A stretch of 64,000 nt of DNA from Saccostrea echinata (taxonomy: Eukaryota): contig NW_026889757.1 of NCBI RefSeq assembly GCF_033153115.1, forward strand, positions 4,712,001 through 4,776,000, written 5' to 3'. The position numbers and the translations under genes were made by a program. Below are positions 18,601 to 46,548 of the stretch, piece after piece. The notes beneath the pieces were generated by a model. The model had not been told where the DNA came from. It was given only the letters and a program-made list of their open reading frames with translations, and searched no databases. The first letter of the stretch is position 1; each line of letters starts with the position of its first letter.

Positions 18601-21600
18601 GCATTAGTCAATCATGGTGAGACATGGTCAAGAAGCACAGGCCAACTATGTTTGTCAAATTAAGATGTGTATAAATACTTACAGTTTCCTTTATATGACA
18701 TTTTTCTAGTGCTGGCCATAACACTTCATCACTGTACTCTCCAAAAGGATCTAAGTTATACCTATAATTAGAAGTTATACCTAAAATTAGAAGTTATGCC
18801 TATAATTAGAAGTTATACCTATAATTAGAAGTTATACCTAAAATTAGAAGTTATACCTATAATTAGAAGTTATACCTAAAATTAGAAGTTATACCTATAA
18901 TTAGACACTATCAACGAGTCATCTACTGATCAATAACAGGCTGGTAACTTTATGCATATTAAATAAAACTTCACCAGTTTTTTGTTTAGAAGTACTTATC
19001 AGTGGTAGTGTACAACCAACCAGTTAATGATCATATCTCCTGGTAAACTGGCTCAAATTGTTTTCATGAAAAAACGATAATTTTGTCAAAATTAACCAGG
19101 ATACCATTGATTTAGCTTTTGGTATGTAATAAATTTATGTTCTTGTAACCTAAAATGTCCACTCATGCTGTAAAAAATAAATTCTTCTATTAAATAGTGA
19201 TAATTCCTGGTCTACTGTGTAAACAGATTTTGATCCGACCTGATGGTGCCTATGAAGAGAACAGGGTCCTGTGGTATAATGGCCAGTTTGGACCTCAGAT
19301 CCTCTAGTCCTAGTGTGGATATGTCAATACCATCTAACTTAATGGACCCAGAATCTAGCTCCACCAACCGAAACAGAGCCACACCCAAAGAGGATTTTCC
19401 TACAGCAATTAAAAAGAATGTTAATTTTCTTATTTGTACAGTGTATATGTGTATGATTTAATGTATAATGCAAGCAGAATACAGACCTACAAACTGAAAT
19501 GAGTTTAAGCAAGAAAAATATTAAAATTCTAACACATAATGATGTCTAAATATATATGTACATTTACTAGCTTCATTTATTTATGTACATGCTAATAAAT
19601 TGGCACATGACTATATTATTCAGGGATCGACATTAACGGTTGTCCGATTGCCAGGGACAAGTAAATTCTCAGTTCGGGCAAGTGAAATTGTCGACATACT
19701 TGTCCGATCGGGCAAGTGAATTTTTCTCATACAAAAGTACATATTTATTTAGTTTACGTTAATTTATAAATAAAACAATAAATTGAACACTTGATTTCCG
19801 CCACGCATCTGACTGACAATGTTTTGCATTCGAAATTCCTTGGTAGCGTTTCTGGATTATACCGTTCATATAAAAATCGAATTTGTTGTTTTCTTTCGTA
19901 GGAAATACACTCTACATCTAACAAAATTTTGTTAACTTCTTATTATGAAATTATATTATTCACGCACAGAATATAAGTACAGTGTAACACGTTGTATCCT
20001 GATCAAGGTAAGATGTATGTTTCGTAGCAACTATCTTCCTTAAGCGTTGCTTCACAGTTATCGCTGAAAATCACGAATCACAAAATGATCCTACCGCAAT
20101 TAATTTTCAAATATATGATTTTTTTTTTTAAAGGAAACGGAGGGTTATTGCTGCATGGCAGTGTATGTTAACAGGTTAAATTTACAAGTACAGCGGTATA
20201 CATTTATGTACAAACACAGGATCGAAATTTTTTCAGGTACCCGGTAGCTCAACTTGCCAAATTGACAGTAGTGTATTTCGTCACATTTTTTCTTTTCATA
20301 ACGTTTGCAGTAATTAATAATTTTCGTCTTAAGTTCCATCCTAATTTTGGGCAACCAAGTTTTGCATTCGGACAAGTCAAAGTTTGAGATCACTTGCCCG
20401 AAGGGCAAGTGAATCTGAAAGTTAATGTCTATCCCTGTTATTATAACTTGTTTCATAAGACTTTATATATAACATGAGACATATCCTTGACTAAGAAAGT
20501 ATAGAAAGCATGAGTTTTACCTGATCCTGATCGGCCCACTATGCCTATCTTCTCCTGAGGAAGAACATCAAAGGACACTCCCTTTAGGGCCAGTGGGAGG
20601 TTTTCTCTGTACCGGAGCTTGACGCTCTTGAAGACTAATGTCCCCTCGTGTGGCCAGTCATCTGGAGGACGACTTTTCTTGATGATGGCCGGGGCCTCGG
20701 ATTCTGCTTCCTGTATAAAAATACTGTAAATTATAGACCAACAAAATGGCAAAACACATGTGTTCCATACCATGCTCTGAGAAACTGTTGCTGCAATAAT
20801 GGATGAAAGCAACACGGAGATGTTAGTACATGTATGTACATTGTATGTACAGTATATGGAATATAAAATTAAAGATATGTTAATCTTCTTAATCTACTGG
20901 TACACGTAAGTTTTGCCGTACAGTATAACCACAGCCTTCCAATCATTTTCTCCAAAATTCTGCGAATGAACAAACTATGAAGGGACAATGTCACTCTCTA
21001 ACAGAAATAAAACTATTTGTAAACTTATGCCTTAACAACAAGTGAAATTTTCCAGCAGTGGAAACACTATACCTTTTCATACTGTGAAAGTCTCTCCACA
21101 GAGGTGAATCTGGCCTCTGTGTCTATTGCCATCCTCACAGTAAATTGGAATAACCCTGTCATCTGAAATAATGATAAAAAACAACTCCTCAAAACACAAT
21201 TCACATATGTGCACATTCACACACTAAAGGACATACATGTACATTGTGCATGTAAAAACTGACATCATTATTCATGAATGGGCTCATAAGTCTTTTACCT
21301 TCAGAAAGGAAATTGCTAATTAAAAATAATTTTTCCAGTAAAACAAATTGAAGAAAGTAAAGACTTTCTACTGACCTGTACAGAGAAAGCCAGGGCCATG
21401 CCGGCTAATGCTGTTGGAATGTTGGTGACAATTACAAGAAGGCCAGTTATTCCTACTACAATAACACATAGAAGATCAAGGCGAATGGCAAGCCAGCGAT
21501 TGGATGCTGAAAACAGGAAGAAAGGCACCGAATTGGTGTCTAACAGCTGATGAAATCTACAAAATGTAAAAATCAAGAATGTACAGAAACATAGCAAGAT

Positions 21601-46548: not shown

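Follow-up and report, generated by a model that had tools for sequence, protein, structure and literature searches.

Four tandem arrays in the ABCC5-like gene of the oyster Saccostrea echinata each have a real exon-intron boundary as their end unit, and we read them, with a probability of roughly 0.7, as mirage minisatellites, that is, as duplications that carried a splice junction with them and grew into the intron whilst the site nearest the exon kept working. The repeat type itself is known. What is new is the measured excess of junctions among long arrays and the clustering of such arrays by gene, which we consider a modest addition.

The arrays lie in a 64,000-nucleotide stretch of genomic DNA (the window), in which a 31-exon model running from 46548 to 15608 on the minus strand gives a translation identical to P0002, a protein labelled Saccostrea echinata ABCC5-like that matched the exon query at 100% identity. 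This model has 60 junctions, as the original prediction had estimated, and a genome search found no second copy of the gene. Three tandem ABCC paralogs, spaced about 16-17 kb apart, are present at G000:C1:42270000-42313000. A Magallana gigas model (P0006) fuses an NHL-repeat region (PF01436) to the C-terminal half of ABCC5 and is probably a chimeric gene model. The features on which the argument rests are collected in Table 1.

Table 1. Positions of the gene, its junction arrays and the related features in the window.
Feature	Position	Strand	Basis
ABCC5/MRP5-like gene from start codon to stop codon, with 31 coding exons and 30 introns	15608..46548	-	exact translation to P0002
A1, array on the exon 28 acceptor (true site 18761), 19 bp x 8.1	18753..18905	-	Tandem Repeats Finder, unit print
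A2, array on the exon 20 donor (true site 26776), 34 bp x 114	22930..26806	-	Tandem Repeats Finder, unit print
A3, array on the exon 18 donor (true site 28633), 50 bp x 8	28277..28677	-	Tandem Repeats Finder, unit print
A4, array on the exon 12 donor (true site 31940), 61 bp, about 5 copies	31650..31966	-	Tandem Repeats Finder, unit print
Exon 11b, 108 nt, old and mutually exclusive with 11a; did not arise from an array	34440..34547	-	used by P0004, P0299, P0307, P0308
Exon 11a, 108 nt	34931..35038	-	gene model
A5, 42 bp x 3.3, donor-like units, 2.4 kb from exon-1 donor in intron 1	43876..44015	-	Tandem Repeats Finder, unit print
Multi-locus repeats including the 146-bp satellite 44882-45716, separating exon-1 donor from A5	44050..46400	.	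match to other loci
Coding exon 1; donor 46457 without adjoining array	46457..46548	-	gene model and unit-by-unit print

Five arrays had been proposed to sit exactly on splice junctions of this gene. Mapping with Tandem Repeats Finder and a unit-by-unit print places A1-A4 there, whilst the fifth, with its 42 bp unit, is absent from donor 46457. The further proposal that the arrays run only into the intron is true of all four confirmed cases, the units of which are mutually unrelated and carry one splice site with part of an exon, never a whole exon with both sites. The A1 unit consists of 9 exon bases and 10 intron bases and supplies seven decoy AGs upstream of the true acceptor; in A4, 31743-31966 is resolved as 61 bp x 3.7, and one further copy reaches about 31650. 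Within ABCC5, four of the six short-period arrays span a junction compared with 0.57 expected (P 0.0009, for a comparison chosen after the fact). The units of A2, A3, A4 and A5 have no match among the other fetched loci and that of A1 has a single weak, A+T-rich one, and a genome search with A2, which skips common words, returned 18 matches that all fall at the ABCC5 locus. A1-A4 are thus of local, single-locus origin. Other repeats in the window have the same unit at many loci, namely the 166-bp array at 11008-13124 (43 other fetched loci) and the 146-bp satellite (18), both of which we take to be probably Helitron-borne oyster satellites. The idea that the remaining intronic arrays of the gene are transposon-borne agrees with the 146-bp repeat and with a 30-bp repeat at 40346 (27 loci), but not with a two-copy 31-bp repeat at 38405, which occurs at no other locus.

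A5 today has no real exon-intron boundary as its end unit. It has one extra partial copy near 43667, and its units align to the exon-1 donor with a score of 33, which a single donor among 888 others reaches, as do 12 intronic 90-mers among 3618 (shuffle p 0.02); going by this resemblance, A5 is probably a junction copy that has become detached from the exon-1 donor. Three further single-locus arrays lie outside ABCC5. Two of them, 6896-7279 (124 bp x 3.1) and 4498-4629 (40 bp x 3.3), lie towards the end of a gene on the plus strand, and no junction was assigned to either, the former having been inspected by eye. The third, 62970-63477 (37 bp x 13.7), has a pyrimidine tract followed by CAG or TAG and occupies an intron of a plus-strand gene which, from its motifs, we take to encode a Gfo/Idh/MocA-like oxidoreductase; again no junction could be assigned by eye, and this may be the acceptor array of an exon absent from the model.

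The original prediction had proposed that junction enrichment be compared with chance, and we did so in dynein heavy chain, myosin and ABCC genes of the same genome, using about 1.6 Mb of fetched sequence as a sample rather than the whole genome. Introns were modelled with our own spliced aligner, which placed 20-22 of 22-25 junctions correctly when checked on ABCC5 with distant proteins. The strict set comprised 888 confident introns in 43 regions, with arrays required to be single-locus, of period 15-120 and of at least 2.5 copies. Contigs C132 and C81 were left out of the counts as near-copies of C10 and C33, and C36 was left out of the wider 42-gene analyses; arrays common to C5 and C36 were classed as multi-locus in the strict count and so fall outside the single-locus counts, as do kinase loci, the best matches of which are intronless, outside the junction counts. 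An excess was found in these 43 other gene regions: 14/36 arrays span a junction, compared with 5.4 expected (p 3e-4; 5.2 under a within-gene null), and among those with at least five copies the figure is 12/19 against 3.3 (p 7e-6). Below 2.5 copies there is no excess (5/58 against 6.0). In this sample, then, the lack of enrichment that would have counted most heavily against the original prediction did not occur. The wider set, with 2580 modelled junctions in 42 genes, yields 73 arrays, comprising 29 that span a junction, nine detached junction copies and 35 that are intronic; nine of the 29 spanning arrays are on low-confidence junctions and two look doubtful. About 1% of the sampled junctions carry such arrays, and the split between donors and acceptors (19 vs 10, p 0.14) is not significant. 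A random-placement null was also tried, giving no excess for all arrays with transposon satellites included (11/132 against 15.8) and 9/28 against 3.5 for robust short-period arrays; we rejected it because it allows arrays onto exons.

Junction arrays are also strongly clustered by gene. Of the 42 genes, 28 have none and 14 have between one and five, several of them three to five, giving a dispersion of 169 where the maximum in 5000 simulations was 97. With four to five arrays in 60 junctions, ABCC5 is a typical "hot" gene, like the ABCC paralog on C5 and the myosins on C5 and C9. Genes with a comparable richness in arrays are found at G000:C5:763001-783000, C9:8078001-8098000, C5:15930001-15970000, C12:5294001-5344000 and C42:4467001-4517000, and a C5 myosin has five junction arrays on 24 modelled junctions. 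In a further ABCC paralog, at G000:C56:8670001-8710000 (L265-L268), an exact two-copy duplication of 137 bp crosses a donor and includes 76 exon bases; this is likely a newborn junction array.

Junction arrays are longer than intronic ones (median 7.2 vs 3.6 copies, p 0.006), and the share of arrays that span a junction increases with size, from 5/24 strong two-copy duplications and 8/35 small arrays to 21/38 with at least five copies (p 0.008 for 21/38 vs 8/35), a trend that unrecognised transposon-borne repeats in the low-copy intronic class could fake in part. Bootstrapping by gene places the junction share at 0.39-0.69 for arrays of at least five copies. Since the share rises with copy number, it seems to be the growth or survival of arrays that is biased towards junctions, and not their birth. 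If one instead supposes that a junction-targeted mutation makes the first duplication, for example through repair that stops at the edge between homologous exon and polymorphic intron, or a lesion associated with splicing or R-loops, then the strong clustering by gene would be accommodated, and purely intronic arrays are found within 60 bp of a junction slightly more often than expected (7/19 against 4.2, a weak difference); short imperfect direct repeats, seen by eye, also flank A2 and A4. However, two-copy duplications, both overall and in the strong class, fall on junctions at the chance rate, which speaks against the duplication process focused on junctions that had been one of two explanations first offered. 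Genes rich in junction arrays, moreover, also tend to have more purely intronic ones (Spearman 0.41, p 0.007), and this covariation suggests a rate that is regional rather than specific to junctions. We therefore regard targeted mutation as an unlikely source of these arrays, albeit the strongest of the competing accounts.

Base composition, acting together with an array-prone region, might suffice alone if exon edges, being richer in G+C, seeded minisatellites more easily. The units of junction arrays (0.365) and of intronic arrays (0.368) do have a higher G+C content than introns (0.312), and tilting the expectation accordingly raises the expected junction share from 0.17 to 0.23, which leaves the 14/36 count at only p 0.02. 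Long arrays nevertheless remain far above the tilted expectation (12/19, p 2e-4; 21/38, p 2e-5), and composition does not predict the rise of the junction share with copy number. G+C content explains only part of the junction excess, and as the whole explanation we think it improbable. Comparing eight hot with 28 cold genes, there was no difference in GC3, CpG depletion (observed/expected) or intron G+C, and so nothing in these data ties the arrays to recombination rate; median intron length differed weakly (p 0.04), although the arrays themselves lengthen introns.

Near-identical gene matches occur on four pairs of contigs (C10/C132, C33/C81, C14/C64 and C19/C23 in G000), which suggest uncollapsed haplotypes in the assembly. 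Array length differs between some near-identical gene copies. A donor array in regions that are 97% identical counts 2.0 copies on C10 but 7.1 on C132, and between C5 and C36, the exons of which are 96.7% identical, one array differs by 11.3 vs 4.1 copies and another by 10.9 vs 3.9, whilst the C33/C81 pair has equal copy numbers at both of its junction arrays.

We also considered what the duplicated splice sites may mean for the transcript. Scored with matrices trained on junctions of the S. echinata genome, 58 donors in A2, three in A3 and three in A4 score at least as high as the true site, and the seven upstream acceptors of A1 score 8.4-9.4 compared with 9.1 for the true acceptor, so the gene does carry the many decoy splice sites that had been attributed to it. 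The accompanying statement, that the duplicated sites give a stop or frameshift, holds for every repeated junction copy in A1-A4, with each A1 decoy acceptor leading to a stop at residue 1271; in A3 one GT that is not a junction copy, 12 nt into the intron, would leave the frame open. Seven of the eight A1 acceptors (18761-18894) immediately precede a GT that forms a weak donor (score 4.3), so that these units resemble recursive-splicing points.

The broken frames need not reflect selection on the decoys. Four broken read-throughs out of four have a chance probability of 0.47, and amongst the first decoys of the surveyed genes (n=28) 22 shift the frame, two are in-frame with a stop and four are in-frame and open, compared with simulated proportions of 67%, 16% and 17%. 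The stops and frameshifts at the ABCC5 decoys are thus at chance level, and a reading-frame filter was rejected, given that 4/28 first decoys are open against 17% simulated. Periods divisible by three number 6/29 (p 0.10; p 0.04 with A1-A4 added; p 0.11 in comparison with intronic arrays). As to use of the sites, a 4404-nt contig from run X1, which we guess to be an RNA run, separates exons 17 and 19 by 151 nt, exactly what exon 18 would contribute if its proximal donor is used. This fits use of the exon-proximal donor at A3, on the evidence of one contig and bearing in mind that contigs drop rare forms. Homologous proteins contain no insertions of eight or more residues relative to P0002. It is likely that the decoys are neutral and that splicing ignores the arrays.

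An alternative would give the decoys a function, either by tuning ABCC5 output through unproductive splicing or by serving as raw material for exons such as the pair 11a/11b, where exon 11a takes the name TM6 from the original prediction and from presumed homology. Such a function would sit well with the many decoys that score like the true site and with the occurrence of A2 in a second species, S. cucullata, and exon-border repeats are able to make new introns in human genes (PMC2812944). Frame-keeping decoys are, however, neither in excess nor lacking, copy number varies several-fold between gene copies, and splicing is reported to proceed normally at lancelet mirages (PMC3087553, PMC3902484). 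The exon pair itself also argues against this alternative. Identity between exons 11a and 11b is 45% at the DNA level and 31% at the protein level, and 11b is a whole exon with both splice sites; a whole-exon copy with both sites and an open frame is found only in 11a/11b and not in the array units, and there is no array trace at exon 11b. Isoforms of Crassostrea virginica (P0004, P0299) and of Magallana/Crassostrea gigas (P0307, P0308) use 11b, other full-length isoforms using 11a, and this use in both species means that the exon duplication is old. The pair is an old, mutually exclusive one, unrelated to the arrays, and the proposed link between the arrays and the duplicated TM6 exon is not supported for a pair so diverged and common to Crassostrea and Magallana. 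Functional decoys are consequently, in our judgement, very improbable. A scallop isoform (P0007) has an exon version between 11a and 11b. The pair lies in the first membrane domain and could change the substrate range, and we found no paper on a mutually exclusive TM6 exon.

The internal structure of the arrays bears on their age and on how they change. A2 has 67 distinct units among 110, with a mean identity to the exon end of about 79%, and contains a higher-order repeat of 951 bp in which 571 bp match without interruption. This repeat stems from an unequal exchange of recent date or, alternatively, from a local mis-join that could affect about 1 kb of length. In A4 the exon-derived parts of the decoys are 94% alike among themselves and 76-79% like the exon, whereas A3 has no concerted pattern (84% among themselves, 75-95% to the exon). 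The inner copies of A2 and A4 evolve in concert, with the exon-edge copy left out. P0001, an incomplete S. cucullata gene model from a contig of 5861 bp, starts with three A2 units read as protein, so the assembly of a second species contains A2; the first 26 residues of P0001 are translated from these units, making this N-terminus an annotation artefact of the array. From their sequences, the arrays are real and not recent. An origin of the arrays in misassembly, for which the uninterrupted 571-bp match, its two copies 951 bp apart, and the possible local mis-join of about 1 kb might be cited, has next to no chance of being correct given that the units are diverged and patterned, that A2 units occur in the S. 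cucullata assembly and that the paired contigs C33/C81 and C10/C132 carry the same junction arrays.

Repeats of this type have been called mirages in amphioxus, and the original paper on the Adh3 mirage is said to be that of Canestro et al. 2002. As described in the available portions of two later sources, mirages occur in Adh3, the globins BflGb6 and BflGb9, troponin C and PGBD5, and are tandem copies that span a boundary on the donor or acceptor side, with units of 10-72 bp in Adh3 (PMC3087553, PMC3902484). The same portions report haplotype variation in copy number, concerted evolution that spares the edges and, for the Adh3 mirage, somatic instability; they call the mechanism unclear and give no enrichment test (PMC3087553, PMC3902484). 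A1-A4 are like mirages in their boundary end unit, in the splice signals kept in the intron and in their local origin. They differ in coming from a bivalve and in the great length of A2 (114 copies, 3.9 kb), and enrichment, its rise with copy number and clustering by gene have been measured for the oyster, in contrast to what these portions contain. Haplotype-like length variation is seen at the junction arrays of other oyster genes, the search for a second copy of ABCC5 having found none. Of the roles suggested for arrays of this kind as raw material, intron gain is already proposed in print for mirages (PMC3087553), and a part in the origin of the TM6 exon finds no support.

Comparable repeats are known from human genes. 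The 37-bp VNTR of F7 intron 7 has a first unit that spans the exon-intron boundary, and its downstream donors, in minigene tests, are competent yet go unused, splicing being confined to the most upstream one (PMC1557585). F7 has one donor array whereas oyster ABCC5 has four arrays, one of them on an acceptor, and a single contig fits silence of the oyster decoys. Human duplicated genes have internal tandem repeats of variable copy number at exon-intron boundaries, some of which yield new introns or alternative transcripts (PMC2812944, in part); the oyster arrays share the exon-border minisatellite units with these, but no new intron or transcript product was seen. Human minisatellites are described as by-products of meiotic recombination, with inter-allelic exchange and regional clustering (PMC2599865), and the likeness to the oyster arrays lies in inter-allelic exchange as the likely engine and in the regional clustering, although GC3 is not raised in the hot oyster genes. 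In the literature, of which most subscription papers were beyond reach, we found neither a bivalve report nor an enrichment test for such arrays, and the available part of PMC10078293 held nothing on junction-spanning repeats.

Taken together, the mirage reading would have the arrays begin as ordinary tandem duplications of 19-61 bp that happened to include an exon edge. Enlargement into the intron would then likely proceed by unequal recombination or gene conversion, whilst the copy next to the exon probably goes on serving as the functional splice site, and the growth may be confined to the intron because growth into the exon is lethal. A selective filter, in which only duplications that leave the exon-proximal site intact survive, was the second explanation first offered, and it does explain the intron-only direction, but it is unable to lift junction arrays above intronic ones. 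We infer that junction arrays also outlast or outgrow intronic arrays, probably because the exon, being conserved, gives divergent haplotypes a fixed point for pairing and protects the site against deletion, with the higher G+C adding about 1.3-fold. Decoys would mostly be ignored because the donor reached first, or the acceptor nearest across the exon, prevails, and any leaked decoy splicing may be removed by nonsense-mediated decay. The arrays are likely harmless recombination by-products, with the caveat that the link to recombination is borrowed by analogy from human minisatellites (PMC2599865).

A broader reading, which we put forward tentatively and consider somewhat doubtful, is that exon edges are minisatellite nurseries in highly polymorphic marine invertebrates, where duplications would arise anywhere but those tied to a conserved exon would be multiplied by recombination between haplotypes and protected against loss, such that more than half of the long single-locus arrays in introns would be stacks of competent splice sites concentrated in certain genes. 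If this were true, each such gene would be an allele-variable natural test of exon-proximal choice among up to about 100 equal decoys. Junction arrays also break assemblies and mislead gene models, as P0001 exemplifies. If the copy-number trend holds genome-wide, it would tell us where minisatellites originate in polymorphic genomes and would provide hundreds to thousands of natural loci of splice-site competition.
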